Source of the DNA: a virus
Length of the DNA stretch: 55,554 bases
Reading direction: 5' to 3' (one strand)
Virus record (IMG/VR): IMGVR_UViG_3300045988_021851
Location: 1 to 55,554 of that record
Shown: in pieces, positions 1 through 55,554 of the stretch
How the letters are laid out: every line of letters starts with the position of its first letter
Numbering within the stretch: the stretch's first letter is position 1
Notes under the pieces: model-generated
The model's input: the letters and a program-made list of their open reading frames with translations, nothing else
What the model was told of the DNA's origin: nothing
Databases searched by the model: none
Made by a program: the position numbers and the translations under genes

Positions 1-77
1 CACAGCCTTGATTGCATCATCCTTTTTCTTTGGCTTTCTCAATCGTTCTTTAACTTCATTGCCGATGCAGTCTTGGC
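1..77. repeat. terminal overlap: bases 1-77 are identical to 55478-55554, so the contig closes on itself (unique length 55477 bp)
   Basis: Direct comparison of the first and last 77 bases (cacagccttgattgcatc...gatgcagtcttggc); a - strand ORF is continuous across the junction. Confidence 0.95.
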
Positions 78-2129: not shown

Positions 2130-3194
2130 CTAATCTTTCATAAAATCCGGCAAATTCTCGTCATTCTCTGCCGATTCAACAACTTCCGCTTCGACTGCTG
2201 CGCTTTCAACTTCTTTTGCTTCCGCATCTACAACAAAATCCTCTGAATTGGCGTTCTCGGCAATTTCTTCCTGCGTCTGCTGATATGTTTCATCCATCTG
2301 TATAAGTGACTGTGTAGCCATAGCGTTAAGGTCTTTCGGGTGTTTCTTGATTGCATTATTACGCATCTTGCGAATAATCATAGCTTCGGAAGTTTCTCTC
2401 CACGCCGCGCTCATATAAGGTCTTGCCGCTTCACAAGCAAGCATTTCTTCCAATGTCTTGCATCCGAGAAGTGCACTGATAATCTCGTCCTTTTTAGCCT
2501 TAATTTCAGCCTTTTGCTTGTCGGTTGCCTTGCGCTTATTCTCGCAAATTCCAAACGTTTCATTCAAAAGATTGTTGCGCACATGAGCCAAAAGGTTTCC
2601 TTTTACACCTTCTCGCTCGGCAATCATATATTCAATCTTTCCGCCGTCCATCTCGACCGGATAAACAACGCGAATGACTTTCTGTGACAATCCCTTTTCT
2701 TCCCATTCCGGTGGTGTAATCTCAACGCCTTTATGTTTCGGGTATGAAAATTCATCTCCTTCTTTCACAAGCCATACCGGATAGACTTTTTTAACGCCAA
2801 CGCCGAAGTTGCGAAGAAGTGCATCGTTTCCGTCTCCCTCGATTCCCATCTCAACCTCTTTATACCAATTTCCATTGGCATCCTGCTTATTTCTTAACTG
2901 GAAATAACACTCTCTCGGTACTGCATTTGCATTAAGTTTAAGGCTGGAAACCTGCCCGATAACCTGCCGCAAATTAGAACCATTCAGATTTTCCATAGCT
3001 GCCTTATTTGATGTAACAAGGTTGTAAATCGCACTCATTGATGCCATAACGCACTGTTTTGAATAATCATCAAATACAAGACCATGTTCCTCGAAATCTC
3101 GCTCCATAAGTCCGATGTACTGGTTTGCGTAGAACGAAAGCCTTGTATTCATTTCCTGCTTAACTGCTACTTCCTGTTTCTTTGCTTCTGCCAT
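2130..3194 (-). CDS. putative single-strand annealing protein (RecT-like by size and context)
   Basis: 354-aa ORF between an SbcC-like ATPase and an MBL-fold gene, near an SSB-like gene; acidic C-terminal tail. Family assignment could not be verified without a search. Confidence 0.45.
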   Translation of the reverse strand: MAEAKKQEVAVKQEMNTRLSFYANQYIGLMERDFEEHGLVFDDYSKQCVMASMSAIYNLVTSNKAAMENLNGSNLRQVIGQVSSLKLNANAVPRECYFQLRNKQDANGNWYKEVEMGIEGDGNDALLRNFGVGVKKVYPVWLVKEGDEFSYPKHKGVEITPPEWEEKGLSQKVIRVVYPVEMDGGKIEYMIAEREGVKGNLLAHVRNNLLNETFGICENKRKATDKQKAEIKAKKDEIISALLGCKTLEEMLACEAARPYMSAAWRETSEAMIIRKMRNNAIKKHPKDLNAMATQSLIQMDETYQQTQEEIAENANSEDFVVDAEAKEVESAAVEAEVVESAENDENLPDFMKD

Positions 3195-6667: not shown

Positions 6668-6943
6668 TTAGTACCAGTCAGAAACAAACGTTCCGAGTAA
6701 CGGACATACAACAACATCTATAAAACGCACGGAACCATCTTCCATGGAATATGTAAAAGCCATTGCAGGTGTGTAAGTCGAATCTCCTGTCTGTATCTGT
6801 GCATCTCTTACAGAGACTCCATATGTTGTTTCCTCGTCAACGAAAATGCTTGAAAAACTTTCCGCAGAGTCAACCTTTGCCAAATAGTTGTCACCGCTAC
6901 GAATTACCCTTGAATTAACTTTCTGAAATTCAAAATTGCTCAT
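6668..6943 (-). CDS. hypothetical protein (91 aa)
   Basis: Internal start MSNFEFQKV with AAAGGAGA RBS; TAA of the upstream small ORF lies 1 nt before the ATG. Confidence 0.55.
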   Translation of the reverse strand: MSNFEFQKVNSRVIRSGDNYLAKVDSAESFSSIFVDEETTYGVSVRDAQIQTGDSTYTPAMAFTYSMEDGSVRFIDVVVCPLLGTFVSDWY

Positions 6944-7161: not shown

Positions 7162-7524
7162 ATGTGCTACATACCTACTCGTCCACAATTGGATGATTTT
7201 TTCAACAAATCCGTCACAAACATCGAAATGCCTAGATACAAAGATGGCAAATCCCCGATTGAAATGTTGGAAGCTCAAACCACTTTTATTGAGCAAACAA
7301 GCAAAGAACTTCACGATATTGCCGACTCTGCAAAGTTGCAAGCTGATTCAGCTAAAGAGATTGCTGAAAGTTCCAAAACGCAAGCTGATGTTGCATTAAA
7401 AACATCAAGCAAAGCGGATATTAAAGGTTGGATTTCTGTGGTTCTTTCTATCATATGTGCTTTAATGGAATTTGCTGTACATCATTCAGAAATAATTGAT
7501 TTTGTCAAAGCTTTGGCAAAATAA
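7162..7524 (+). CDS. accessory protein with C-terminal transmembrane helix (120 aa)
   Basis: AAGGAGA RBS 7 nt before the ATG; repeat-like DSAKLQADSAKEIAESSKTQAD; hydrophobic WISVVLSIICALMEFAV; own promoter and terminator; opposite strand to its neighbours. Confidence 0.65.
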   Translation: MCYIPTRPQLDDFFNKSVTNIEMPRYKDGKSPIEMLEAQTTFIEQTSKELHDIADSAKLQADSAKEIAESSKTQADVALKTSSKADIKGWISVVLSIICALMEFAVHHSEIIDFVKALAK

Positions 7525-8484: not shown

Positions 8485-8610
8485 TCATTGCAGAGAAGCG
8501 GAAAGCTGTTTCTCAATCTCTTCTTGCACTTTTGCGCGCCAACGCATCGGCACTTCATCAATCGTCATTTTCTTATCTACAAGAATACGTCTCACGTAGA
8601 ATTTAACCAT
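8485..8610 (-). CDS. XkdX-like small tail-module protein (41 aa)
   Basis: MVKFYVRRILVDKKMTIDEVPMRWRAKVQEEIEKQLSASLQ; TAATG overlap with the upstream gene. Size and position after the tail fibres are typical of XkdX-type proteins. Confidence 0.45.
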   Translation of the reverse strand: MVKFYVRRILVDKKMTIDEVPMRWRAKVQEEIEKQLSASLQ

Positions 8611-8990
8611 TATGCTTCACCTCCTGCTACCATATCTGCAAGATCCTGAATTGCTCCGGCGTTTACTTCATGCCCTGCTTTCAGTTCATCAATTGCTTTT
8701 TCCATCTCAGTCTTAGTCCTCAAGCTGACCGTTACGGTGTACGTACCATCTTCAGCGCCATCCTTGCTCTTATTTGGCATATATGAGAATCCCTCGCACT
8801 TAAGATCATCATACTCGCCGGAGATCTGATCGTTGTGTTTAAATGCGACCTTTGATATATTCTCCGATGAAAAGGCATCTGTGATTGTCTTGATTCCGTC
8901 AAAATCTTTCGACTGAATCTGAATATTGCCGAGACTCGCTCCTTCGGCGATCTCGAACTCTGTTTTGTTTTTCAAAATAATTTTGTCCAT
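8610..8990 (-). CDS. hypothetical tail-module protein (126 aa)
   Basis: ORF track; follows the tail fibre genes; GAAAGGAATAAAAATT before the ATG. Confidence 0.55.
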   Translation of the reverse strand: MDKIILKNKTEFEIAEGASLGNIQIQSKDFDGIKTITDAFSSENISKVAFKHNDQISGEYDDLKCEGFSYMPNKSKDGAEDGTYTVTVSLRTKTEMEKAIDELKAGHEVNAGAIQDLADMVAGGEA

Positions 8991-9035: not shown

Positions 9036-9054
9036 ATTTAAACGGCAGTTTAAA
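9036..9054. repeat. inverted repeat, left copy (ATTTAAACGGCAGTTTAAA): candidate recombination site
   Basis: Exact reverse complement of 9868-9886; internal dyad TTTAAAC-GGCA-GTTTAAA. Confidence 0.9.
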
Positions 9055-9367
9055 AAATGATTTGCTCAAGACAAACCACATAGGCAAAGATGATGTCACC
9101 GCGTTTTCAAATTTTTACATGAATCAAAAAAGTACATTTTTGGTGATAGAAAGTACCGGAAACAATACATTAAATAAGGAAATCTTTGGTTTTGATGACG
9201 ATAATTTCAATAATGGCTTCGGGTGTGTCATTTTGTCCGTGAAAATGTCTGTGTGGAGAGGCTTTGCGATTGCAATACCTATTAGCGGTTGGGGACGTAA
9301 TTGCTATATTGGACAAATAAGTGGAGGCGACGGAGCTTTCTTATGGTCAAAAGTATCATTGACATAA
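9038..9367 (+). other. promoterless, RBS-less alternative tail-fibre C-terminal cassette (silent in this orientation)
   Basis: The + frame reads LNGSL-KNDLLKTNHIGKDD.. from inside the repeat to a TAA at 9365-9367. It has the same LNGSL codons and frame as the repeat copy inside gene 9495..10352. Confidence 0.7.
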
Positions 9368-9494
9368 ATCAATCCACGAATCAAGAACATATCCATTAGT
9401 TGTCTGATGTAATCTGGGTTTACAGGTAGTCTAATATTAGCCACGATCAATTTATTTGCGTTTGAATTTGATATTATCCACCAAAGTTATAATT

Positions 9495-10352
9495 TTAAAG
9501 AAGTTTTAAAGCCCAAATTTCATAAGTAATAGTTATTGTAGCACTTGTATAACATAAAAAATAAAGCTCAATAGGCGCATCAATCGTTGCTACAAAAACA
9601 TTAGTTACAGATCTTGTTACACCTGTTTCACCTGCTGTTATCGTACTAACAGGCATATTGACGTTTTTTTCATAAAAAATAAATGATTGTTCTTTTGTGT
9701 CTATAGAAGTGTCTATATACACATCACTATTACAAACTGCATGAGCTTTAAGCCCTAATATATATTTCCCGGGTTGTAGCGTTATAAAGTTGTCACTTGC
9801 CACCCATTTATTTATAACAGATGGAGTTAAGGTGTGTGGACTAGACCATATTATATCGCGGTTATTATTTAAACTGCCGTTTAAATCACTTATCTGCTTT
9901 GCAAGCGTACCATCCAGATTCGGATTTGCCTGCCGCGCATCAAGTGCAAATCCGTTCTCTGTTGTTACCTGATTGTTTACGATACTTTCCGGTTGCAGTG
10001 CGCTTCCGATTTTATCCTTTAGGGCATCTGCCAACTTTATGACGTTTTTCGCTTCATCTAATGTAATTGTGGTTCCATCCAAGTTAATGCTAAGCGTTCC
10101 ACTCTCATCTACGCTCATGCTTTTTCCGTCCGGCTTTACAACTCCGGCATCCTCTGTTGTTGCAATCGCACTAGCACCGCCCACGATAGACTTAGACCAG
10201 TATTCCGTATTACTCGTTGCCGTTCCTGCCGGCACATCTTTTTTTGCAAAATACAATGTGTTATTATGAGTTACTGCATCCAATCTCTTATATGTAGCAT
10301 CTGCGCTCCAATCGCCCTTTGGCACAATTGCTACTCTTCCTGCTATAGCCAT
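9495..10352 (-). CDS. tail fibre / receptor-binding protein (285 aa) containing the right inverted repeat
   Basis: ORF track; follows other fibre genes; residues 157-161 (LNGSL) are encoded by the repeat at 9868-9886. Confidence 0.65.
   Translation of the reverse strand: MAIAGRVAIVPKGDWSADATYKRLDAVTHNNTLYFAKKDVPAGTATSNTEYWSKSIVGGASAIATTEDAGVVKPDGKSMSVDESGTLSINLDGTTITLDEAKNVIKLADALKDKIGSALQPESIVNNQVTTENGFALDARQANPNLDGTLAKQISDLNGSLNNNRDIIWSSPHTLTPSVINKWVASDNFITLQPGKYILGLKAHAVCNSDVYIDTSIDTKEQSFIFYEKNVNMPVSTITAGETGVTRSVTNVFVATIDAPIELYFLCYTSATITITYEIWALKLL
9868..9886. repeat. inverted repeat, right copy (TTTAAACTGCCGTTTAAAT)
   Basis: Exact reverse complement of 9036-9054, located inside the tail fibre ORF. 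Confidence 0.9.
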
Positions 10353-11084
10353 TTAAGCCACCTCCCAATTCAAATTCCCGTCATTGTCAACGACAAAGTT
10401 ATATGCCGCATTGTCCGTGTAAATCAACTCCCCATCCTCATTCACATCAAATTCTGTCATTGTGAGTTTCTTGTTAATCTCGTCTTCGATTCCCTGCACC
10501 CGGTCTGCGCTGTCCTTGGCATCTATGGCAGATTTTGCCGCCTTGGTTTCGGACGTTCCTGCGCTTTTGGCAGATGCTACCGCCTTGGCAGATTCCACTT
10601 TAATATCTGCAAGATAATCCGGGCGCAGATGCTTTTCTTGGATACTTCCCTCTTTCACGATTGCGGACACCTTACCGTCGCTGCCGATTGCAAATGCGAT
10701 TGTATCAGAATCCAAGAACTCATATTCTGTAATCAATGTGGATAAATCTACATTCTGCGTTGTACCATCATCTAGCGTTATCACAAGTTGCTGTGCCTGC
10801 GGGTTGTACTTGAAGTTGACAGCCAACTTTTCCAATTTGGTATCAATGACCGCCTTGGAACCATTCATTTTAACAACTGTCAGAGTTCCGTTGGATTCAT
10901 CCCACAGAATTTCTTTCACAAGCTCATTTGCCTTTGTCAAATCAACCTTAGACGCATCCATAGCAACCACACGATCATCCAGATTGTCAATTGCCAAGTC
11001 CATCTTGTTAAGATTAGATTCATTTACCGCTGTTTTTTCGCTGGGAAGATTCTCCCAGTTGATACGGTTATATATTTTCTGCAT
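10353..11084 (-). CDS. tail fibre/baseplate upper protein-like structural protein
   Basis: N-terminus YNRINWENLPSEKTAVNESNLNKMDLAIDNLDDR resembles fibre/BppU-type N-termini; its stop abuts the next fibre gene. Confidence 0.55.
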   Translation of the reverse strand: MQKIYNRINWENLPSEKTAVNESNLNKMDLAIDNLDDRVVAMDASKVDLTKANELVKEILWDESNGTLTVVKMNGSKAVIDTKLEKLAVNFKYNPQAQQLVITLDDGTTQNVDLSTLITEYEFLDSDTIAFAIGSDGKVSAIVKEGSIQEKHLRPDYLADIKVESAKAVASAKSAGTSETKAAKSAIDAKDSADRVQGIEDEINKKLTMTEFDVNEDGELIYTDNAAYNFVVDNDGNLNWEVA

Positions 11085-13335
11085 GGCTCACACTCCTTTC
11101 TAACGCTGATAATCTTTGTTCAAAATCACTACATCTGTTCTGCAGTTTCTGTATCATGGCAGTGTTAAGCGCAATAAACTCTTGATAGCACAATGTATAC
11201 ATATCATTTGCTCCACCATTCTGCTTTAAGAAATTTTCCCATTCCTCATTAGATTCAAAATCTTTTTCGGAGAATACCGCATGTTCCAGTCCGTAAAACT
11301 CATTTTCAGATATGTCACAATCCATCATTGCCTGTTCGATATCCTGTGCAACAAATCCTATGTGCATTTTCTCATCATTTTCTATGAGCCGATATTCCAT
11401 CGGTTGCAACAACTCAAAAAATCTTTCAAACCGATCATCCTCTAATAGCTTTCGGAAATCTTTTTTCTTTCTACGGTCAGATGTTGTTTTCCAACCGCCA
11501 GAAGAATATCCTCCAGCAAATGGATTTGGGGTTGTTCCACAGTACACGGAACTAGAACTTGGAATTAGATTTCCGTTGTTGGAAATTTGTACATAATCAC
11601 TTATTCCGACCCCTTTTAAATAATATGCAGTTGATGCCATGATACACTGTCTTGCACTTTCCGCAGTCGTTGCCGAATCTGCAGTCGTTGCATGATCTGC
11701 TGTGCTAGCATGGTCACCTATTGGTGCACCGTCTTGGTCTTTTACGGAGCCTAGGTCGATAACCATGTTTTGAAGCATCGGTCTGCCTTTTCCATCAAGA
11801 CCAATAATTGTAAGGTCATCACCAAACGCCGTAGAAAGAAAGTTCAGAGAATCAATGATTGTTACTTTTCCATTTCCATCAAGCCTGAAATTATTGCTTT
11901 CGATTATGAGTCTGTTTCCACGAAGCATAATCTGGTCTGCGCTGGCATTGATCATAGAAATAACTTGGTCGTTCTCATCTCTTCCAAGTTTCAATTCCAG
12001 TGATGCGTCTAATTGCCCTTCCGCTTTTTGTGCACGATTGACTTCTGCGGCAATGCTATTTGTGGTCTGCTCAAACTTGGTATTTGTCTGTTCCTCTAAA
12101 TCCTCGTATGTGGATTGAAGATGATCTGCGTTCCTCTCTAACTTTCCGGTACGCCTTTCCACACTTTCAATCGTATCTCTGATAGAATTAACCTTTACAG
12201 AGTGTGTCTGCGTGCCCTGTGCCGAGATTGAATCTCTCTTGCTTTGCACTCCGGTTAGGGTGCGTTGCAAAAGATACGTTTCAACGATTTCTCTCGTGGT
12301 GTTGAACCGGATTGGTTCGCCAAGTGTCAGACATGGATTGCCGACACAAGTGCAACTTTTGATCGGTGTGTATGCCGCCTGTTTCATAATCGGCAATAGG
12401 TTATTTGCAATCTGCTCCAGCTCCGCTCCGGTCTTATCTGATACAAGAAAGTTTCCTGTAATCGAATAGTTGTTCCCGGCAGTTCCAACAATAGCACCGG
12501 CATTATCTTCGCTTGTCTTGATTTCTAGCTGCGTGATTGCCTTACTTTGGAAGTCCTCATAATCAAACGTGATATAGTGTCCGGTCATGGACTCCGTGTT
12601 TGCATCAGACGGAAATAAATTGTCTGACGGAAATAAATTGTCTGCCGGATAAAGCGCACTTGTGATTGCTTTAAGAAAGACATACTCAAACTTGCCATTC
12701 CGGTTGATATTGCCAAAGCATCCGTTAATCTCACAGATTGCCGTTACAACGGTTTTTCCACTGATAGAGGACTCTTCTGTGACCGCACTTGAATCGTCCG
12801 TCTGTGTGGCTACAATCGTCTTATTTACCGTCATGGAATCATTGACAAGGCTTGTTTCAACTTGCGCAATTCCAAGATGTGCAAAGAAGCTATCGCGGAA
12901 CTGCTTAAGCGTCATTGGAAAGCTAAGTCCTGCATACCAAGCCTTTACATCCGTATTGATAATGTCGTACATAGCGTCATATGCCGTAATCTGCCGTTTT
13001 GTCCGGTCAGCCGTAGGAACATCGGATGCCACCTTAAAAATTCCGTATGGCATCGGATTTTGGCTATCTCCGTCAATCGTTTCTTCAATAGAGATTGTCT
13101 TTCCGATAATGTTTCCTGCGGTGTTTCTTGCCGTGAATTTTACACAATTCGCTTCGCACGCTCCAAACTTTAATTCAGACTCCGAACAAAGACTTTCTTC
13201 AAGTGCAAACGTACCGATTTCAAGCATCGAATTGTCTATTTTCTGATTCGTTCCAACAACAGATATAACCATCTGCTTGTCTGTCGAGGAATCCCAATAC
13301 TTTTCTTTCAAACTGCTATTTATCATATACACCAC
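11068..13335 (-). CDS. tail-tip/tail-associated protein with C-terminal intramolecular chaperone (peptidase S74-like) domain
   Basis: C-terminal SDRRKKKDF..MEYRLIENDEKMHIGFVAQDIEQAM..CYQEFIALNTAMIQKLQ matches the auto-cleaving chaperone pattern of fibre/spike proteins. Confidence 0.7.
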   Translation of the reverse strand: MVYMINSSLKEKYWDSSTDKQMVISVVGTNQKIDNSMLEIGTFALEESLCSESELKFGACEANCVKFTARNTAGNIIGKTISIEETIDGDSQNPMPYGIFKVASDVPTADRTKRQITAYDAMYDIINTDVKAWYAGLSFPMTLKQFRDSFFAHLGIAQVETSLVNDSMTVNKTIVATQTDDSSAVTEESSISGKTVVTAICEINGCFGNINRNGKFEYVFLKAITSALYPADNLFPSDNLFPSDANTESMTGHYITFDYEDFQSKAITQLEIKTSEDNAGAIVGTAGNNYSITGNFLVSDKTGAELEQIANNLLPIMKQAAYTPIKSCTCVGNPCLTLGEPIRFNTTREIVETYLLQRTLTGVQSKRDSISAQGTQTHSVKVNSIRDTIESVERRTGKLERNADHLQSTYEDLEEQTNTKFEQTTNSIAAEVNRAQKAEGQLDASLELKLGRDENDQVISMINASADQIMLRGNRLIIESNNFRLDGNGKVTIIDSLNFLSTAFGDDLTIIGLDGKGRPMLQNMVIDLGSVKDQDGAPIGDHASTADHATTADSATTAESARQCIMASTAYYLKGVGISDYVQISNNGNLIPSSSSVYCGTTPNPFAGGYSSGGWKTTSDRRKKKDFRKLLEDDRFERFFELLQPMEYRLIENDEKMHIGFVAQDIEQAMMDCDISENEFYGLEHAVFSEKDFESNEEWENFLKQNGGANDMYTLCYQEFIALNTAMIQKLQNRCSDFEQRLSALERSVSHAENI
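12605..12652. repeat. 18-bp tandem repeat (about 2.6 copies) inside the tail protein gene
   Basis: cagacggaaataaattgt / ctgacggaaataaattgt / ctgccggataaag; encodes ADNLFPSDNLFPSDANT. Confidence 0.85.
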
Positions 13336-16223: not shown

Positions 16224-19200
16224 TTATACCGGAAATGGTGACATTCCGGTACGATTAAAATACTCTTGTGCGCTTTGGCGTGTGCTATCAAAGATAACTT
16301 TTCCGTCAAGTGAAATCTGAATCGGTCGATTATTTCCTCCACCCATTTTCACAAGTGGCTGAATAACTTCCTTTACAGCCTGTGCGACTCCGTAAGAAAC
16401 AGACGATACAATCTGGTCGTTATTCATTACTGCAGTATGACCGCCAAGCGTACCGACAAGTTCCGGACCCGCTTCTCTTGCAACGAACATCTGTCCCATG
16501 TTTGGCAATCCACCGACTGCGTATTTCTTAATCGGCTTCCAACTTCCACCGGAAAATACACCGCCATCGGCTTTTTTTGTTGCAGAACCTTTTGTTTTTA
16601 CATTTACGGTTTTTCCTCTAAAGAATGTCGATACACTAGACCAGAGGTTCTTCAAAGCATTTGAAGCAAATGAAATGCCTATTTTTAATGTTCTTCCTGC
16701 ATTGATAACTTTTTCTTTCCACTCGTCACTTACATCTTTCCACCATGTTCCACCGGCTCTCTTGACGTTTACAGTAAATCTCTTTACCTCTTTTCCTACC
16801 GTAGTGCTTTCCCACCATTTTTTAACATTAGACCACCATTCACCGGATTTATTTTTAACGCCTGTAGTAAATTCTTTTACCTTACCGACTTTCTCTGCCC
16901 AATATTTCTTAGTGTTACTCCACCACTTAGATGCATCATTCTGGACTGCGGTTGTAAATTTCTTAACTTGTCCAACTTTTTGACCCCAATATTTCTTAGT
17001 GTTACTCCACCATTCTTTAGCGGAGTCTTTTACATCTGTAGTAAATTCTTTTACCTTACCGACTTTTTTAGACCAGTATTCCTTGGTATTCTCCCACCAT
17101 TCTTTAGCATTATCTTTTACCCTAGCTTTAAAATCTGCATATTTATTTTTTATCTTATCCCAATCAGACTTTAATTTCTTCCATAATTCAGATGCTGTTG
17201 TCTTTATTTTAGCTTGGAATTCAAGCGTTTTGTGGGATTTTACACTGTTTGCATCATATGGGTTTGCGGCATTTTTTATTTTTTCCGTTTTTTCCGAATA
17301 CTTACTATTGGAATTATACGGATTAGCAGAATTTGCATTTGCACGCTTTTTCGCTTTTTCTTCATAATTTTCAACATCTTTATCCGAAATCGCCCTTCCG
17401 TTATTATATGGATTAGCCTTGTTATCTCTGGCAGTTTTTTTTCTTCCCTCGACCCATCCGTATTTTTTAATATTGTCTATCCATTCTTTAAAGTCCTTAG
17501 AAAACTGCACTGCGACTGTAATTGTGGCTGCAATTACAAAACCTGTTGCAAGGGTTCCGGCTATGCCACCTCCCAACTTTACCAAACTTAGTTTTTTTGT
17601 TATCGCTTTACTTAATTTCTTATCAAGATTCTTTGTTATAGCACTCTTTATTAACTTATAGAAGTTTTTCCCAAGTCTGCTAAATGCTCTCGCCCCAATT
17701 ATCGTTGCTATGGCACTCGGTGATAAATTCGTAAGAAAAGTTTTTAGTCCATTGAAAATATCTTTCCAACTCAAATCATCAAAGAATCCTCGGACAAACT
17801 TCCAAAAACCATCAACCCATCCGTTGATAGCTTCTGCGCACTGTTTCCACTTGAATTTCTTGAAAAAACGATTAAATCCATGCGCCACATTCTTGCCAAA
17901 TGTTTCAAACTTAAATTTATCCGTAAATCCTTTTGATGCGAATATTGCAGTATTCAACGCTCCTGCAATCACATCAGCAGTTGCGGTAAATACACTATTT
18001 CCCTTTTTATCTTCTGAAAACAAACCATTAAGAAACTCTGCGAGTCCTGTTCCAAATCCGGACGCTTTAGCATATATTTTATCCCATTCAATGCCACCAA
18101 CGGCTTTTACAAGGGCTTTTCTTATTTCAATCCCAAGTCCTTCAAGGTCTTTTATGTTGCTTACGAAATCCTTGTAAATAGTGTCTGTCTTAACCAGTTT
18201 TCCGATATCTCCACCACCGGAACCACCAGCGCCTGAACTAGAGCCGGAACCTTTGTTTCCAGAACCGGAACCCTTGTCTTTACTCTGTTTTGAAATAACC
18301 TTTAATTCATCAAATGCACGAGTTGCCTGTTGGATTTCCTTTTTTGCTTTCTTGGCATTCTTTGCGATACCGCCTGTGTTTTTCCCTGCGTTTCCTGCGG
18401 CATTACTTAAATCGTCCATGCCGTCAGATGCGCTTCCAATATCATCAGCAAGGCCGCTGATCCCTGCTCCTTTGCTTGCTTCATATCTCCATCCAAAGAT
18501 TGAACCTAAAGCATTTGTTACCATTTCCGCAAAGGAAATCACCTTTTGCAGAACTGCATTGAGTACCTTGATAAACGGCTTAAATGCATTGATTAAACCA
18601 CCACCAACAACCGCTCCAAGTGCTTTGAAATTCTCTCTAAGCATGGTTATCTGGTTATGCCAACTATCTTGCGTCCTCTTGAAGTCCTCGGTTATATTGG
18701 TTGTATGCGCAAGCACATACTGATAACGCAACATGGCTTTTTGAGCCTGCGTCATTGAGGAAATGTTTGCATCAAGTCCTTGTTTTAATGCCCATTCCTT
18801 TAATGTTGCCTGTGTCAAGTCGATACCATAACGCCGCATAGGTGCCGTAGTACCGGAAAATACAGATTGCAGACTCTTGGCAATATCTTCTTGACTCACA
18901 TCATAGAATGAAGCCATATCTCCGGCTAATTCTGTCAACCGGATAGACATTTTTGCCATTTTCCCCTGTGGAATATCAAGGGCAGTTCCCATGGCTTGGA
19001 AACGGCTTGCAAACTGTTTCGCGGACAATTCGGACATACCAAATTTTTCAATTGATGTTTTTGCGAAATTGTTAATTAGGCTTTCATACTGCCCGAATGT
19101 CTGCCTTACAACGTTCTCAACCTCTGTCAGTGAGGATGATATGTCAATAGCATCTCCAAGTAGCCTAAATCCTCGGAATAGAGTCCAATACGTTGCATAT

Positions 19201-19832
19201 ACTTTTCCGATTGCAGACGCAAGGGAGAACGACTTCTTAGTAACCGCAGAAGCACCGGAACTAAATCCGCTAAATGAGCTTGTGATGCTTTTTGCCGCTG
19301 TTCCTGCCGCTCCACCGGTACGCGATAATTTTGCCAATGCATTTGTCATGTCGATAATATTCCGGCTTACGCTAGGGGCTTTCGACAGTTCAGACATAAG
19401 CTGTCGCATTGCCGTAGCAAGTTTCGGAATATTTTCAATCGCCTTGGTGGAACTCTGGTAGCCAAGCTGTTTGATTGCAGATGCAAGTTCGGTCAGACCC
19501 TTAACAGATGCTGACATTCCAGAAAGCCCTTTTACCGCATTGGAAATCTGACGCATAGAACCAGCCGCGGCATTAATCTGTTTGCTGTTGATAGAGCCTA
19601 ATTTGCTCACATTTCTTGCAACCGCAGAAAAAGTCCGTGTGTCAATTCCACGCATTGCCGTCATTGCCCCTGCAAGTCGGTTTACCCCGGTGGAAAGGCT
19701 ATTCAAATTCCCGGTACTAAGTCCGGAAAGTGCGGAAGATAATCTCCCAAGCCTTGTCACAAGCGCATCTATCTGACCGCTTGCCTGTTGTGCCTGTGCT
19801 TGGATTTTTATTTCAAGAGACTCTAATTCCAT
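16224..19832 (-). CDS. tail tape measure protein (1202 aa)
   Basis: Longest ORF, after the chaperone pair. About five tandem 29-aa repeats with a W-W motif (KEWWxNTKxYW..KVGxVKxFTT) at about 16715-17150; Gly/Ser-rich stretch. Confidence 0.85.
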   Translation of the reverse strand: MELESLEIKIQAQAQQASGQIDALVTRLGRLSSALSGLSTGNLNSLSTGVNRLAGAMTAMRGIDTRTFSAVARNVSKLGSINSKQINAAAGSMRQISNAVKGLSGMSASVKGLTELASAIKQLGYQSSTKAIENIPKLATAMRQLMSELSKAPSVSRNIIDMTNALAKLSRTGGAAGTAAKSITSSFSGFSSGASAVTKKSFSLASAIGKVYATYWTLFRGFRLLGDAIDISSSLTEVENVVRQTFGQYESLINNFAKTSIEKFGMSELSAKQFASRFQAMGTALDIPQGKMAKMSIRLTELAGDMASFYDVSQEDIAKSLQSVFSGTTAPMRRYGIDLTQATLKEWALKQGLDANISSMTQAQKAMLRYQYVLAHTTNITEDFKRTQDSWHNQITMLRENFKALGAVVGGGLINAFKPFIKVLNAVLQKVISFAEMVTNALGSIFGWRYEASKGAGISGLADDIGSASDGMDDLSNAAGNAGKNTGGIAKNAKKAKKEIQQATRAFDELKVISKQSKDKGSGSGNKGSGSSSGAGGSGGGDIGKLVKTDTIYKDFVSNIKDLEGLGIEIRKALVKAVGGIEWDKIYAKASGFGTGLAEFLNGLFSEDKKGNSVFTATADVIAGALNTAIFASKGFTDKFKFETFGKNVAHGFNRFFKKFKWKQCAEAINGWVDGFWKFVRGFFDDLSWKDIFNGLKTFLTNLSPSAIATIIGARAFSRLGKNFYKLIKSAITKNLDKKLSKAITKKLSLVKLGGGIAGTLATGFVIAATITVAVQFSKDFKEWIDNIKKYGWVEGRKKTARDNKANPYNNGRAISDKDVENYEEKAKKRANANSANPYNSNSKYSEKTEKIKNAANPYDANSVKSHKTLEFQAKIKTTASELWKKLKSDWDKIKNKYADFKARVKDNAKEWWENTKEYWSKKVGKVKEFTTDVKDSAKEWWSNTKKYWGQKVGQVKKFTTAVQNDASKWWSNTKKYWAEKVGKVKEFTTGVKNKSGEWWSNVKKWWESTTVGKEVKRFTVNVKRAGGTWWKDVSDEWKEKVINAGRTLKIGISFASNALKNLWSSVSTFFRGKTVNVKTKGSATKKADGGVFSGGSWKPIKKYAVGGLPNMGQMFVAREAGPELVGTLGGHTAVMNNDQIVSSVSYGVAQAVKEVIQPLVKMGGGNNRPIQISLDGKVIFDSTRQSAQEYFNRTGMSPFPV

Positions 19833-32243: not shown

Positions 32244-32265
32244 ACGCCCGACTTTTTCGAGCAAA

Positions 32266-32350
32266 CGCAGTGTGTAGGATTCGAACCTACAAGGCGAATA
32301 AACGCCCGACCGGATAGCAACCGGCTCCAATTCCATTATGGGAACACTGC
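32266..32350 (-). tRNA. tRNA-Ser (anticodon GCU), class II
   Basis: Hand fold: acceptor GCAGTGT/ACACTGC, D stem CCA/TGG, anticodon stem GCCGG/CCGGT with loop TTGCTAT, long variable arm GGCG/CGCC, T arm GTAGG-TTCGAAT-CCTAC. Confidence 0.8.
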
Positions 32351-32515
32351 AAATGGCAATATCCAATCACTCAAAGGTTAACCAAACGCATTAGGAAATT
32401 TTGATTGTATCGCCTAACTGCTTTTGTTGTACTTCCTACTCACAGTCTTTTTGTTGTGCGTTATCTTTTTTGATTTCCACTCTCACATTCCGAAGAACCG
32501 AAAGGCCTCCCGAAG

Positions 32516-32587
32516 TTGGGATTGCAGGAATCGAACCAGCGACAACCCGGATATAAGCCGTGTCTTCTACCACTGAATTAAATCCCA
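32516..32587 (-). tRNA. tRNA-Ile (anticodon UAU), with three stem mismatches
   Basis: Hand fold: acceptor TGGGATT/AATCCCA, loop CTTATAT, T arm GCTGG-TTCGATT-CCTGC; mismatches in the D, anticodon and T stems. Confidence 0.5.
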
Positions 32588-32593
32588 ATATAG

Positions 32594-32663
32594 TGATCGG
32601 TACGAGATTCGAACTCGTGTTACCACCATGAAAGGTGGTGTCTTACCGCTCGACTAACCGATC
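32594..32663 (-). tRNA. 70-nt tRNA with a non-canonical anticodon loop (6 or 8 nt, centre UCA)
   Basis: Acceptor GATCGGT/ACCGATC, D arm and T arm ACGAG-TTCGAAT-CTCGT are good. The anticodon arm ACCACC-TTTCAT-GGTGGT cannot form a 5-bp stem with a 7-nt loop. Confidence 0.45.
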
Positions 32664-32890
32664 ATAACCGCCACAAGACGGTTAGCAATATGTTTTACGT
32701 GCTATGCGTTACACGATCATGTGACGTGGGATAGATGCATGATAGAATACCACCGGACGGTCTCGCACCGTCCTTAACAGAATCGTCCTAGTGGCGAAAG
32801 GAGGAACCCAAATGCTTGAATCACTCAACCAAGGGTTCAAGTACATATGAAAAACATACGTGGTTACATGAAACGTCAGCATGCAACCAG

Positions 32891-32962
32891 TTAGGCTACC
32901 GGGATTCGAACCCGGGAATACAGGAATCAAAATCCTGTGCCTTACCACTTGGCGATAGCCCA
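32891..32962 (-). tRNA. tRNA-Gln (anticodon UUG)
   Basis: Acceptor TGGGCTA/TAGCCTA, TCGCCAAGTGGTAAGGCA D arm, stem CAGGA/TCCTG with loop TTTTGAT, T arm CCGGG-TTCGAAT-CCCGG. Confidence 0.85.
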
Positions 32963-35566: not shown

Positions 35567-36307
35567 TTAATCTTTCCCACTCGATTTCTTTTCTCTGTTT
35601 TTGATATTTTTCTTTGCATTCGGATATGTTTCCGCATACCATTCCAGAAAGTTGCCAAACATTTTTTCTTCTGCTTCCTCTCTTACTTTTATCGCTTCTT
35701 CTTTTTCCCGGAAACTCCCTAAATTATAATGTTTTCCCATAAACTCGATCTGCGCTATCCATCTGCTCTTGTTTGCATCCCAATGCACACCCTTATGCCC
35801 GGACTTATTGTTTTTTGGAATTTTTGCGGTTAAATTATTTACATTTGTTCCGGCAATGCAATAATTATCTACTATTTTTTTGCCGTAAATCTTCCCATTT
35901 TTTGAACTATTTTCCCTGCCAAGGCACCCACAGCTTGCCACGCCTCCGTTTTTTAAAGAGCCGGCAGATACTTTTTTAAACTTTCCGCAGTCGCACCGAC
36001 ATAGCCATATAACAGAGCCGTTGTGCGGATCGCGTTCGCTAGTTGCCTTTATTACTTCCAACCGCCCAAATCTTTCTTTCGCTAAATCCTTTTGTTTAAA
36101 TTGTGTCTTTGCCATTAAACATCCGCATCCCTTGCGGTGCGGATCGTCAAGTTGATCTTTGCGAATCCATTTAATTTTTTTGCAATAAGGGCATTCTACT
36201 TGTAAAAAAGATCGTCTGTTTTCCCTTTTGCAATCCAAAACTTTAAAGCCTTTGTAAGTTGTCCCGACAAGATCTTCCGCTTTTGTATATTTTCGTTTTT
36301 CTCCCAT
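35567..36307 (-). CDS. AP2-domain DNA-binding protein with N-terminal Cys-cluster repeats
   Basis: GVHWDANKSRWIAQIEFMGKHYNLGSFREKEEAIKVREEAE = AP2 pattern; ECPYCKK..GCGC and CRCDCGK..CGCL; start MGEKRKY with GGAGAAACC RBS. Confidence 0.6.
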   Translation of the reverse strand: MGEKRKYTKAEDLVGTTYKGFKVLDCKRENRRSFLQVECPYCKKIKWIRKDQLDDPHRKGCGCLMAKTQFKQKDLAKERFGRLEVIKATSERDPHNGSVIWLCRCDCGKFKKVSAGSLKNGGVASCGCLGRENSSKNGKIYGKKIVDNYCIAGTNVNNLTAKIPKNNKSGHKGVHWDANKSRWIAQIEFMGKHYNLGSFREKEEAIKVREEAEEKMFGNFLEWYAETYPNAKKNIKNREKKSSGKD

Positions 36308-36390
36308 GGTTTCTCCGAATATAAAAAGATGTGCAAAACCGCTATTATACGATTTTACACATCCTATGTTACTGTTTATCATATTTAATT

Positions 36391-44879: not shown

Positions 44880-45044
44880 CCGCATCCCTCCTATGCTTAT
44901 ATTTTTGCATAAAAAAATACGGTTCTTCCGCAAAAAATAAGCAGAAAAACCGCATAAAAAAGAACGCCCAAAGCGTTCCAAGTCTACCATTTTCAGAAAG
45001 AATCTAAAGCACTTGTGCAGACTCCTTTCTTTTGTGTTCAGTTT

Positions 45045-45206
45045 TTGAGTACCATTTTGAGTACCAAAGTTTTTTAAGACGCCGCAAACACAGTGTTTAT
45101 GCGACTTTTAAAACAGTCCGTACGGGAATCGAACCCTAAAGTAATTGCCTTGAAATGGCTTAAAATAGCAATTCTTTCAATTTTTCTTTGAGTACCTTTG
45201 AGTACC
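45045..45206. other. attP-like region: tRNA 3'-end-like core flanked by two pairs of TTGAGTACC arm-type repeats
   Basis: TTGAGTACC at 45045, 45057, 45188 and 45198. Core at 45114-45136 reads (rc) GGGTTCGATTCCCGTACGGACTG = T-loop plus acceptor 3' strand. Lies directly downstream of int. Confidence 0.6.
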
Positions 45207-45212
45207 AGAGAC

Positions 45213-46409
45213 TCATAATGCTTCGATTAAGTCAAGTTCCTGTCTCTTTTCCTCAATTCCGGTACGGTCAAAATAATAATGATCTTTTGTGCAACTAATG
45301 TCTGTATGCCCCATAGTATCAAGAATTGTGGACTCTTTCACTTTTCCGTCAAGAAGAATGCTTCCGTATGTCTTTCGTATTTTGTGCGGAGATTTCACTT
45401 TCATTCGCAGTTCATGTTCGCAGATATACCGCAAACGTTCACGAAAGTTGTAGGATTTCAACCGTTCTCCATCTCTCTCGAATAGATATTCCCCAAAGGG
45501 ATTTCTCTTTCGTACTTCATCAAGAATCCATTTGTACTTATCCGGCAATATAGCAAATCGCAATCCGGCTTCTGATTTTGGAAAATCTTTAACATCATAG
45601 CGAAAACCATCATCATCCCGGTAACGTGTCTCTGTAGAATTGATTGCAACCGTGTAGTTTTCAACGTCTTTCCGCTTCAATGCCGACAATTCCCCGACAC
45701 GTACCCCTGTCTTAAACATGAATAGCAATCCAAGGTTTACTATATCCAAGTGATTCCTTAAGTACATCTCCATGCGTTCCTTTTCATCCGGCATATATAC
45801 TTGGTCTTTTGCCTGCCGAACTACGTGCTTAAATGCTTTTGGCGATATATCCATATCTTTCAGCGTGTATGTAATTGAAAACTTAACATACTTCTTCCGC
45901 TTGGCATACTTAAAGATTCCATAAATCAGCGTCCGAAAGTTCGAGAATGCCTTGGAAGTCATGTCGAAATCATGGATGCTGTTTCGTATGAACGTTTCAA
46001 GGTCGCATTCGTCTATCCTTTTGATTCTCTTATCCTTAATTCCATCAAAGTATCTCTGAAAGTCCATTAAGTATCTGTCATAGGTTGCCCTGCTTATCTC
46101 TTCAAGTTCTAGCTTTTGTGAAATCCAACGGTTGAAGATTTCCGCTACTGTAGGGTCGTCTTCCCTTTCTTTCCAATAATCAATAATCTTCTGCTCGACC
46201 GCTTCTCTGCGCTTTGCCTTGATTTTACGTCTGCCCTTTACTTCATCCGGCAGATATGAGTACCAGTTCTCATCCTTTCCTTGATAGATTTTATAAGGGT
46301 TTTTGTTGAGTAATTTTTCTCTCTTTTGCATAGTGACTTGTTTCTGCACAAGTGCTATGTCGAGAATACCACTATCAACGGCATATTTCAACAGTTCTTT
46401 TTCATCCAA
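45213..46409 (-). CDS. int: tyrosine recombinase / integrase
   Basis: TGVRVGEL (Arg), HKIRKTYGS (HxxR), LGHTDISCTKDHYY (His..Tyr). Confidence 0.85.
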   Translation of the reverse strand: MDEKELLKYAVDSGILDIALVQKQVTMQKREKLLNKNPYKIYQGKDENWYSYLPDEVKGRRKIKAKRREAVEQKIIDYWKEREDDPTVAEIFNRWISQKLELEEISRATYDRYLMDFQRYFDGIKDKRIKRIDECDLETFIRNSIHDFDMTSKAFSNFRTLIYGIFKYAKRKKYVKFSITYTLKDMDISPKAFKHVVRQAKDQVYMPDEKERMEMYLRNHLDIVNLGLLFMFKTGVRVGELSALKRKDVENYTVAINSTETRYRDDDGFRYDVKDFPKSEAGLRFAILPDKYKWILDEVRKRNPFGEYLFERDGERLKSYNFRERLRYICEHELRMKVKSPHKIRKTYGSILLDGKVKESTILDTMGHTDISCTKDHYYFDRTGIEEKRQELDLIEAL

Positions 46410-46615
46410 TCAAATACCCCCGTTCTTTCTATTTTATCTTTTATATCTCTCACTCTGTACTCGATCGTTCTTAGTGATAGATTTTCTTTTGTGGATATTT
46501 GCTTTTGTGAAAAACCACGGCAAAGAAGAGAGAAAATCCTCTCCTCTTCTTCCGTGAAATTGGCATTTTCTTTGATTTGTTCAAGTTCTGGCTTAATGAA
46601 TTTTGTAAACTTCAT
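46388..46615 (-). CDS. sigma-70 region 4 / LuxR-type HTH protein (75 aa)
   Basis: FTEEEERIFSLLCRGFSQKQISTKENLSLRTIEYRVRDIKDKI. Confidence 0.6.
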   Translation of the reverse strand: MKFTKFIKPELEQIKENANFTEEEERIFSLLCRGFSQKQISTKENLSLRTIEYRVRDIKDKIERTGVFDWMKKNC

Positions 46616-55400: not shown

Positions 55401-55554
55401 TTCCTCCCCAATGGCTCCATGCTCATTTGAGCCACAAACTTTCCGTAACTCATGCCAGAAGCGCGCGCCATATGATTCACAGCCTTGATTGCATCATCCT
55501 TTTTCTTTGGCTTTCTCAATCGTTCTTTAACTTCATTGCCGATGCAGTCTTGGC
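55397..55554 (-). CDS. 3' portion of the junction-spanning zinc-ribbon ORF (see 1..246)
   Basis: ..AIKAVNHMARASGMSYGKFVAQMSMEPLGRK, then TGA at 55397-55399. Confidence 0.6.
   Translation of the reverse strand, partial: QDCIGNEVKERLRKPKKKDDAIKAVNHMARASGMSYGKFVAQMSMEPLGRK
55478..55554. repeat. terminal overlap, second copy of bases 1-77
   Basis: Exact identity with 1-77. Confidence 0.95.

Follow-up and report, generated by a model that had tools for sequence, protein, structure and literature searches.

The 55,554-nucleotide virus record IMGVR_UViG_3300045988_021851, analyzed here over its whole length and referred to as the window, carries a tail fiber gene whose end forms part of an 813-bp segment bounded by two short inverted sites, with one fiber tip expressed (C1) and a second lying silent in the opposite orientation (C2). 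Comparison with related viruses shows that segments of this type invert within the phage family, and that the same sites act as crossover points at which whole segments are exchanged between phages. The window genome encodes no dedicated invertase, and in a lineage of larger phages the same sites lie beside a Xer-like tyrosine recombinase. We favor, with moderate confidence, the interpretation that the window locus is an orphan two-cassette derivative of a tyrosine-recombinase shufflon, inverted in trans by a member of this Xer-like family. Throughout, L numbers denote related contigs or loci and P numbers denote protein homologues; coordinates of the window features are collected in Table 1.

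Organization of the fiber switch

The sequence ATTTAAACGGCAGTTTAAA at positions 9036–9054 recurs as its exact 19-nt reverse complement at 9868–9886, and the repeat arms reach 28 nt at 89% complementarity. The right copy (site 1) is a perfect 8-4-8 dyad, ATTTAAAC-GGCA-GTTTAAAT (9867–9886, read on the - strand), and the left copy (site 2) is an 8-4-7 dyad, so that the site can be described as a dyad of 16–20 bp in which the central dinucleotide would be a palindromic GC. For the 18-mer core with up to three mismatches the chance expectation is 0.16 per window, and the observed count was reached in none of 100 shuffles. At this threshold the window holds only these two sites, and with them a single segment with two cassettes, apart from a third site-like match at 1121–1138 that has three mismatches, is not conserved in relatives, and is attributed to chance.

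Site 1 codes for LNGSL, residues 157–161 of the 285-aa fiber protein (9495..10352, - strand). The C2 frame on the + strand is open from 9032 to a stop codon at 9365–9367 and reads TY-LNGSL-KNDLLKTNHIGKDD, with KNDLLKTNHIG as the residues following LNGSL, in the same phase as the LNGSL of the fiber. No ATG and no ribosome binding site were found in the C2 frame, and promoter-like sites there are not above the shuffle expectation. Computed inversion of 9055–9867 yields a 265-aa protein (N+C2) in which the 124-aa C1 is replaced by the 104-aa C2. An initial annotation, made from the sequence alone, had described the exact 19-bp inverted repeat, the dyads with 4-bp centers, the LNGSL codons within the fiber gene, the promoterless + strand open reading frame (ORF) in the LNGSL phase, and the fusion of the constant 161 residues to a 104-aa C-terminus that inversion would create; all of these were recovered, with repeat arms longer than first described. 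The protein encoded by the 126-aa gene adjoining the switch has no Pfam or PHROG match and no recombinase motifs, and is treated as fiber-associated.

Inversion and tip diversity in related phages

The hypothetical N+C2 fusion, used as a protein query, had 3231 homologues, and in every protein of the family the sequence switches directly after LNGSL. P0001–P0008 span the whole fusion, and C2-type tips are therefore expressed elsewhere, as they also are in L174. Among the 80 related viral loci that were compared, 63 have site 1 together with an inverted site 2 located 300–1010 nt downstream, and several further loci contain weaker copies of the site. Site 2 in the relatives always lies 60–90 nt upstream of a homologue of the 126-aa gene, which is present in all family loci. 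The 15-nt core TTAAACGGCAGTTTA is essentially invariant at both sites in the 63 loci, synonymous positions included, unlike the third-codon positions of the adjoining constant region, which vary freely. In a scan of viral contigs, every match to the site with A or C before it belonged to this phage family.

An open frame of 56–163 codons follows site 2 in about 65 loci, and five loci have one cassette only. In these single-cassette variants, L010, L011, L019, L083 (site 2 at about 6985), and L080 (site 2 at 6766), the inverted site is positioned directly after the fiber stop codon; inversion there would truncate the fiber and so act as an on/off switch, or else these loci are decay products. 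Collectively, 133 tips group into 41 sequence clusters, twelve of which have members in expressed as well as silent positions.

Both orientations of the segment are represented among the relatives, as would be expected from the initial proposal of an invertible segment. Six pairs of loci have the whole segment reverse-complemented at 97.8–99.8% identity, and among pairs with at least 97% segment identity there are 6 inverted versus 32 in the same orientation; exact reverse-complement pairs include L068/L070, L023/L045, L037/L040, and L058/L062. In L068/L070 the site-to-site stretch of 629 nt is inverted between near-isogenic flanks, with 716 nt upstream 100% identical, 5407 nt downstream 99.96% identical (2 differences in 5.4 kb), and 1820 nt at the integrase locus 100% identical. 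The repeat, at 19–21 nt, is probably (we assume) shorter than the k-mers used in assembly, and for this reason the observed orientations are unlikely to be assembly artefacts. The genome comparisons thus show that inversion occurs in this phage family.

At the same constant/variable junction, L174, from a more distant fiber lineage (P0005), has an exact inverted repeat of 13 nt with another sequence, TAAACAATGATTT (6766–6778 and 7368–7380). The junction reads LNNDF in place of LNGSL, an in-frame silent tip is present, and no recombinase lies within 10 kb. Because this repeat occupies the same junction, the site sequence can evolve.

The sites as crossover points

Relationships between otherwise diverged phages suggest a further role for the two sites. 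Between the window and L050 there are 10–17 differences per 100 nt upstream of site 1 and 9–36 per 100 nt downstream of site 2, and two differences within the whole 813-nt segment; the nearest flanking differences are 7 nt away from site 1 on its upstream side and 13 nt away from site 2 on its downstream side. Many other pairs are similar, with segments 97–100% identical and flanks 78–90% identical. Since these islands of identity are bounded by the sites, diverged phages exchange whole segments, with the crossovers placed exactly at the sites. The adjoining constant region is 88% identical and holds identical tracts longer than the repeat, yet the boundaries fall at the sites, which argues for site-specific rather than homologous recombination.

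Coding selection and predicted folds of the tips

The initial annotation had set codon-level conservation of the + strand ORF as a point on which its interpretation would stand or fall, and such conservation was found. Compared with the expressed C2-type tip of L174, C2 has a proportion of synonymous differences (pS) of 0.47 and of nonsynonymous differences (pN) of 0.19, and a ratio of nonsynonymous to synonymous substitution rates (dN/dS) of 0.29; an open frame of 111 codons, as in C2, arose in 1 of 20000 shuffles. These values indicate that the silent C2 is a real coding sequence under purifying selection. Copies of C1 gave dN/dS values of 0.36–0.46.

Comparison of the predicted structures of both C-termini, a check also suggested in that annotation, was made with AlphaFold2 models of moderate confidence. 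The C1 model (predicted local distance difference test score, pLDDT, 75.5) is a TNF-like jelly roll resembling trimeric lectins (BC2L-C, PLTL) and a cyanophage fiber carbohydrate-binding domain, and the C2 model (pLDDT 72.4) has an alpha/beta fold unlike C1, for which a staphylococcal phage baseplate protein and an Acinetobacter phage tailspike gave the two best, though weak, fold matches. As their sequences and predicted folds differ, C1 and C2 are unrelated domains, as expected of alternative receptor-binding modules, and by their position, diversity, and fold the tips would set host range. No reverse-transcriptase family is present among the Pfam matches of the window, and the window thus lacks this hallmark of a diversity-generating retroelement.

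C1-type tips are also found as silent stand-alone ORFs in other assemblies (P0241–P0259, L003, and L175). The silent C1-type cassette of L003 adjoins the left outer flank, and L175 contains a 98%-identical C1 with the spacer and the end of C2, flipped relative to the 126-aa-type gene and situated on another phage backbone. A 38-mer spanning the site and C2 had three metagenome matches, all of them silent.

Recombinases of the window genome

Window positions 1–77 recur exactly at 55478–55554, from which we conclude that the contig is a closed circular assembly of 55,477 unique bases and a complete phage genome; the circle junction is bridged by the related contig L088. A Pfam scan of essentially all window ORFs of at least 70 aa gave no recombinase family other than that of the tyrosine integrase, and no Resolvase or Recombinase match. 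Searches of the window by tblastn with Hin, Gin, and gamma-delta resolvase returned nothing at E<1, and a tblastn search with the Xer-like shufflon recombinase described below returned the integrase only, at 23% identity (E=0.002). No serine recombinase is located within 6 kb of the switch in the 80 related loci. A dedicated invertase is absent from the window genome, as the initial annotation had reported, and the absence is firmer for the genome being a complete circle.

The integrase was itself put forward at the outset as a possible enzyme, but it has an attP site of its own. The attP core is the tRNA 3'-end-like sequence GGGTTCGATTCCCGTACGGACTG (about 45112–45137, - strand), flanked by four TTGAGTACC arm-type repeats arranged as two pairs, and has no similarity to the inversion site TTAAACGGCAGTTTA. 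Integrase homologues with 98–100% identity occur on 132 viral contigs, many of which end just past the gene, and two independent contigs with a 98%-identical integrase end inside the attP core; of 80 viral contigs with the integrase, about 20 lose similarity to the window exactly at the core, and 11 of these run into three different host flanks. The attP assignment follows from these contig ends and prophage junctions at the tRNA-like core, and the enzyme appears to be an ordinary integrase that integrates the phage into a tRNA gene, for which reason it is unlikely to be the invertase. A 75-aa helix-turn-helix (HTH) protein of the GerE/LuxR type (46388–46615) overlaps the start of the integrase gene and is kept with it in L088–L090; it could be an excisionase or a regulator.

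One further recombination gene was considered in a relative. L040 encodes an IS110-family transposase (431 aa, 10017–11312) about 3 kb downstream of the switch, and the IS110 family includes Piv-type invertases, but the gene is a single-locus insertion, absent from the window and from the other loci.

A Xer-like recombinase beside the same sites in larger phages

L175 holds the first 111 residues of a tyrosine recombinase whose 90% cluster has members of up to 344 aa. The full 326-aa recombinase (6001–6981 in L180) is encoded by L176 and by 16 viral contigs, L177–L192, mostly of 84–155 kb. These loci are organized in the order long fiber gene with site A, inverted site B, a 132-aa gene, a 60-aa gene, the recombinase, site C, two convergent silent cassettes, and inverted site D. 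The sites are thus linked in cis to the recombinase gene, and sites C and D match the 16-nt core of the window exactly in most of the L176–L192 loci. The long fiber gene codes for 931 aa in L180 and 947 aa in L176, and the product of the 132-aa gene is 64% identical to the 126-aa protein of the window.

The recombinase matches the XerA (7.6e-64), XerC (1.3e-53), and XerD (2.2e-50) models and consists of Phage_integrase and SAM-like domains, without an arm-binding domain; the same phages encode a separate 437-aa arm-type integrase (L180, 8495–9808). Cassette pairs are found at either the depot (C–D) or the expression locus (A–B) in different contigs (L177/L179 versus L191, and L178 versus L189), and this difference in locus shows that the four-site shufflon shuffles. 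Residues 115–161 of the window fiber, a 47-aa neck, are 83–94% identical to the end of the larger-lineage fibers, and residues 1–114 are not common to the two; the fiber loci of the larger lineage and the window have in common the neck, the tips, and the downstream gene only.

Proposed mechanism and alternatives

The constant 161-aa part ends in the site, with C1 expressed and the convergent promoterless C2 headed by the inverted site; in the proposed mechanism, site-specific recombination would invert 9055–9867, joining the constant part in frame to C2 and silencing C1, and progeny virions would bear a different receptor-binding tip. The invertase would be supplied in trans from the Xer-like family, for example by a co-resident larger prophage, and the same sites are also the crossover points for whole-segment exchange between phages. 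More tentatively, the phage may keep a working switch and outsource the invertase to an unrelated larger phage that lysogenizes the same host, with both lineages using TTAAACGGCAGTTTA to flip tips and to trade cassettes by recombinase-mediated cassette exchange, so pooling more than 40 tips.

Several observations weigh against the proposed mechanism. The window N-terminus joined to C2 is absent from about 15 billion predicted proteins, the flipped N+C2 DNA junction is absent from viral contigs and metagenome contigs, and on a window-type backbone with the C1/C2 pair C1 is expressed in every assembly found; the initial proposal of an invertible segment is upheld for the phage family, and the flipped form of the window phage itself was not found. 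The putative link between enzyme and site is one of adjacency. The 13-nt repeat of L174 indicates that the site requirement is not absolute. Moreover, the recombinase itself decays: it is intact in 10 of the 16 viral loci and interrupted in 6, and the copy in L176 has two in-frame TAA codons (9944 and 10706, residues 44 and 298). In L200 a deletion has fused a pseudo-site within the recombinase gene, ATTAAGCACACGTT, to the outer flank of site D (L200 4230–4260; L180 6240–6260 and 7748–7763), with loss of the catalytic part of the recombinase and of the silent-cassette depot. An IS605-type element (Y1_Tnp and OrfB) is located just downstream in L200. In many window-type loci the stretch that separates site 2 from the 126-aa gene is similar to the outer flank of site D. 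Together with the L200 deletion and the L176 nonsense codons, these flanks show that the enzyme has been lost repeatedly while sites and cassettes were kept; a deletion of the L200 type is a self-inflicted route to invertase-less loci, and such loss may leave fossil switches.

A fossil switch at the window locus, with sites and silent cassette inherited or acquired by exchange, inversion ceased, and the mixed orientations of relatives produced by horizontal segment replacement, would accommodate this recurrent loss as well as the complete genome without an invertase, the constant expression of C1 from the window cassette pair on its own backbone, and the frequent horizontal exchange seen in the segment-wide identity islands. 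We nevertheless regard it as unlikely: in about 65 loci that lack an invertase the silent cassette has kept its reading frame under purifying selection, the 15-nt core does not vary at either site even at synonymous positions, import from a diverged donor is hard to invoke for the near-isogenic yet inverted L068/L070, and exchange exactly at the sites itself requires site-specific activity. Continued activity in phages without an invertase is favored by this pair, the selected silent cassettes, and the invariant core, and the window phage may still switch. Trans supply could also come from the host, through a chromosomal Xer-type recombinase or a 'master' invertase, as with Mpi in Bacteroides or RecV in Clostridioides difficile. 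The half-site ATTTAAAC presumably resembles the outer part of the XerD-binding arms of dif sites, the cis-encoded enzyme of the larger lineage is closest to the XerA/XerC/XerD models, and the phage is without an invertase. An invertase acting from elsewhere has been proposed for an inversion in bifidophages that has no recombinase of its own (Mavrich et al. 2018, PMC6109161). We consider a host enzyme improbable, however, as scans of genome collections gave distant relatives only, the exact site in the A/C-preceded context is confined among viral contigs to the window phage family, and the larger lineage brings a dedicated enzyme of its own, which argues against host supply.

Two further mechanisms were considered. 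That the window integrase (45213–46409) doubles as the invertase is very doubtful, despite its being the sole recombinase in the genome and 98–100% conserved across the family, given its classical attP with tRNA 3'-end core, four arm-type repeats, and prophage junctions, the dissimilarity of GGGTTCGATTCCCGTACGGACTG and TTAAACGGCAGTTTA, its 23% identity to the shufflon recombinase, and the use of a different integrase plus a dedicated armless recombinase by the lineage that has the same sites. The short repeats could instead recombine by homology, with host RecA or the phage RecT-like protein and no site-specific enzyme, but this mechanism has the least to recommend it and we give it hardly any credence: the identity tract is merely 13–21 nt, exchange boundaries lie at the sites despite longer identical stretches in the 88%-identical constant region, the dyad core is invariant across diverged phages, and a dedicated recombinase sits beside the same sites in the other lineage. 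Its products would nonetheless be identical to those of site-specific recombination, the phage does encode a RecT-like protein, a single-stranded DNA-binding protein (SSB), and an SMC-like ATPase, and in L174 the junction carries another repeat, of 13 nt. On balance, inversion of the window segment in trans by the Xer-like family is the interpretation we prefer.

Genome context and host

The window has a G+C content of 39.8%, and nearly all of its genes are on the - strand. These genes are ordered terminase, SPP1-type portal, capsid, an ORF in the tape-measure position, an S74 protein, a 243-aa protein, the fiber with the switch, and the 126-aa gene. Beyond the 126-aa gene there is an HTH repressor region followed by the early genes, which code for SSB, the SMC-like ATPase, the RecT-like protein, DnaB, and a C5 methylase, with the tyrosine integrase at the end.

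Table 1. Coordinates of the switch and of other features in the window.
Feature	Position	Strand	Remarks
126-aa gene	8610..8990	-	directly downstream of the switch; travels with the module
Left recombination site (site 2)	9036..9054	+	heads the silent cassette; 45 nt upstream of the 126-aa gene start
Invertible segment, 813 bp	9055..9867		silent tip, 127-nt spacer, and expressed tip
Silent tip C2, 104 aa + stop	9055..9367	+	no start codon; in frame with the left site
Spacer between convergent cassettes	9368..9494
Expressed tip C1, 124 aa + stop	9495..9867	-
Right recombination site (site 1)	9867..9886	-	inside the fiber gene; encodes (D)LNGSL
Constant N-terminal fiber part, 161 aa	9868..10352	-	weak PHROG tail fiber match
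1202-aa ORF, tape-measure position	16224-19832
755-aa protein			Peptidase_S74 chaperone domain; between the tape-measure-position ORF and the 243-aa gene
RecT-like annealing protein	2130-3194
attP	45040..45212	-	immediately downstream of the integrase gene
Tyrosine integrase	45213..46409	-	Pfam Phage_integrase; sole recombinase of the genome

A cluster of four tRNA genes is located at 32265–32962 on the - strand, with Ser-GCT, Ile-TAT, and Gln-TTG and one call with a four-base anticodon (ttca); the latter may represent a suppressor tRNA, a frameshift tRNA, or an oddity of ARAGORN. A 271-aa zinc-ribbon protein (35567–36382) resembles a homing-endonuclease-type DNA-binding protein and probably also bears a weak AP2 match, which came from a pooled Pfam scan whose hits were not assigned to single ORFs. 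The gene for this protein is found between the tRNA cluster and an anti-repressor gene, where genes occur on both strands, and shows no obvious tie to the switch.

Among annotated phages there is only a weak match, from Roseburia phage Jekyll to the neighboring 243-aa gene, and Jekyll has no switch. A scan of genome collections with the integrase as query found nothing, and one with the fiber N-terminus found distant relatives only, in a Roseburia metagenome-assembled genome (MAG; 72% over 87 aa) and in Eubacteriales and Christensenellaceae MAGs, none with a comparable repeat. From such distant relatives the host is presumed to be a member of the Lachnospiraceae, perhaps Roseburia. More than 3000 homologues of the fiber N-terminus are known and 1688 sequences make up the integrase cluster, and the family is a very abundant one among human-gut temperate phages.

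Relation to known switches and implications

The logic of the switch is already known from Mu G, P1 C, and the bifidophage Rin system. In textbook coliphage tail fiber inversion the invertase adjoins the segment. The window resembles Mu G and P1 C in having a single segment with inverted repeats in the tail fiber gene and an in-frame C-terminal swap, which in Mu and P1 alters host specificity. Those systems use an adjacent serine invertase (Gin or Cin), 26-bp sites with a 2-bp crossover, and a Fis-dependent enhancer, whereas no serine recombinase was detected in the window and a tyrosine recombinase is found in its relatives; they also have a second gene (U/U') per orientation, and the window segment has two tips only. 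Of the general features of tail fiber inversion systems, the layout of repeats and cassettes is present in the window and both orientations occur in the family, but there is no invertase in the same element.

The R64/IncI shufflon likewise switches C-terminal adhesin tips on a constant N-terminus with a tyrosine recombinase, and its multi-site form is mirrored in the larger phage lineage. There, Rci is encoded beside the shufflon, the 19-bp sfx sites have one conserved arm, and the target is a plasmid pilus adhesin (pilV), in contrast to the phage fiber, single segment, and absent recombinase of the window. With Mpi of Bacteroides fragilis and RecV of Clostridioides difficile, one recombinase acts on several dispersed invertible regions that have no enzyme of their own. 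This is the trans mode proposed for the window, but in those bacteria enzyme and targets are on one chromosome and the inversions are mostly promoter flips, whereas the candidate enzyme considered here is encoded by a different phage from the one that carries the target.

Bifidobacterium prophages have the Rin shufflon, with an armless Xer-like tyrosine invertase located by the cassettes and an arm-type integrase elsewhere (Mavrich et al. 2018, PMC6109161); the larger lineage (L177–L192) is organized in the same way. The window is like Rin in belonging to a temperate phage of a Gram-positive gut bacterium and in having a constant N-terminus of the receptor-binding protein with alternative C-terminal cassettes, each preceded by a short crossover site. 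It differs in having no adjacent recombinase and one segment with no more than two cassettes and sites, and its site is a 15–20 bp dyad, TTAAACGGCAGTTTA, rather than the 11-bp asymmetric rix. The nearest precedent for the window is the second inversion described in that study, a recombinase-less 500-bp inversion in other bifidophages for which an enzyme acting in trans was suggested (PMC6109161). Tail fibers are among the usual targets of programmed inversions (PMC9881135). A literature search returned the Rin shufflon, surveys of tail fiber inversions in general, and long-read surveys of phage structural variants, and nothing on the window phage family or on dependency between phages.

The tip repertoire of the switch comprises at least 41 types. 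Annotation that seeks an adjacent invertase will miss switches of this kind, and host-range prediction from a single assembly sees one of two tips. If the invertase is indeed supplied in trans, the host range of one phage would depend on a co-resident prophage, a form of phage–phage dependency, and the sites would be natural points of recombinase-mediated cassette exchange and would account for the sharp mosaic borders of receptor-binding genes.

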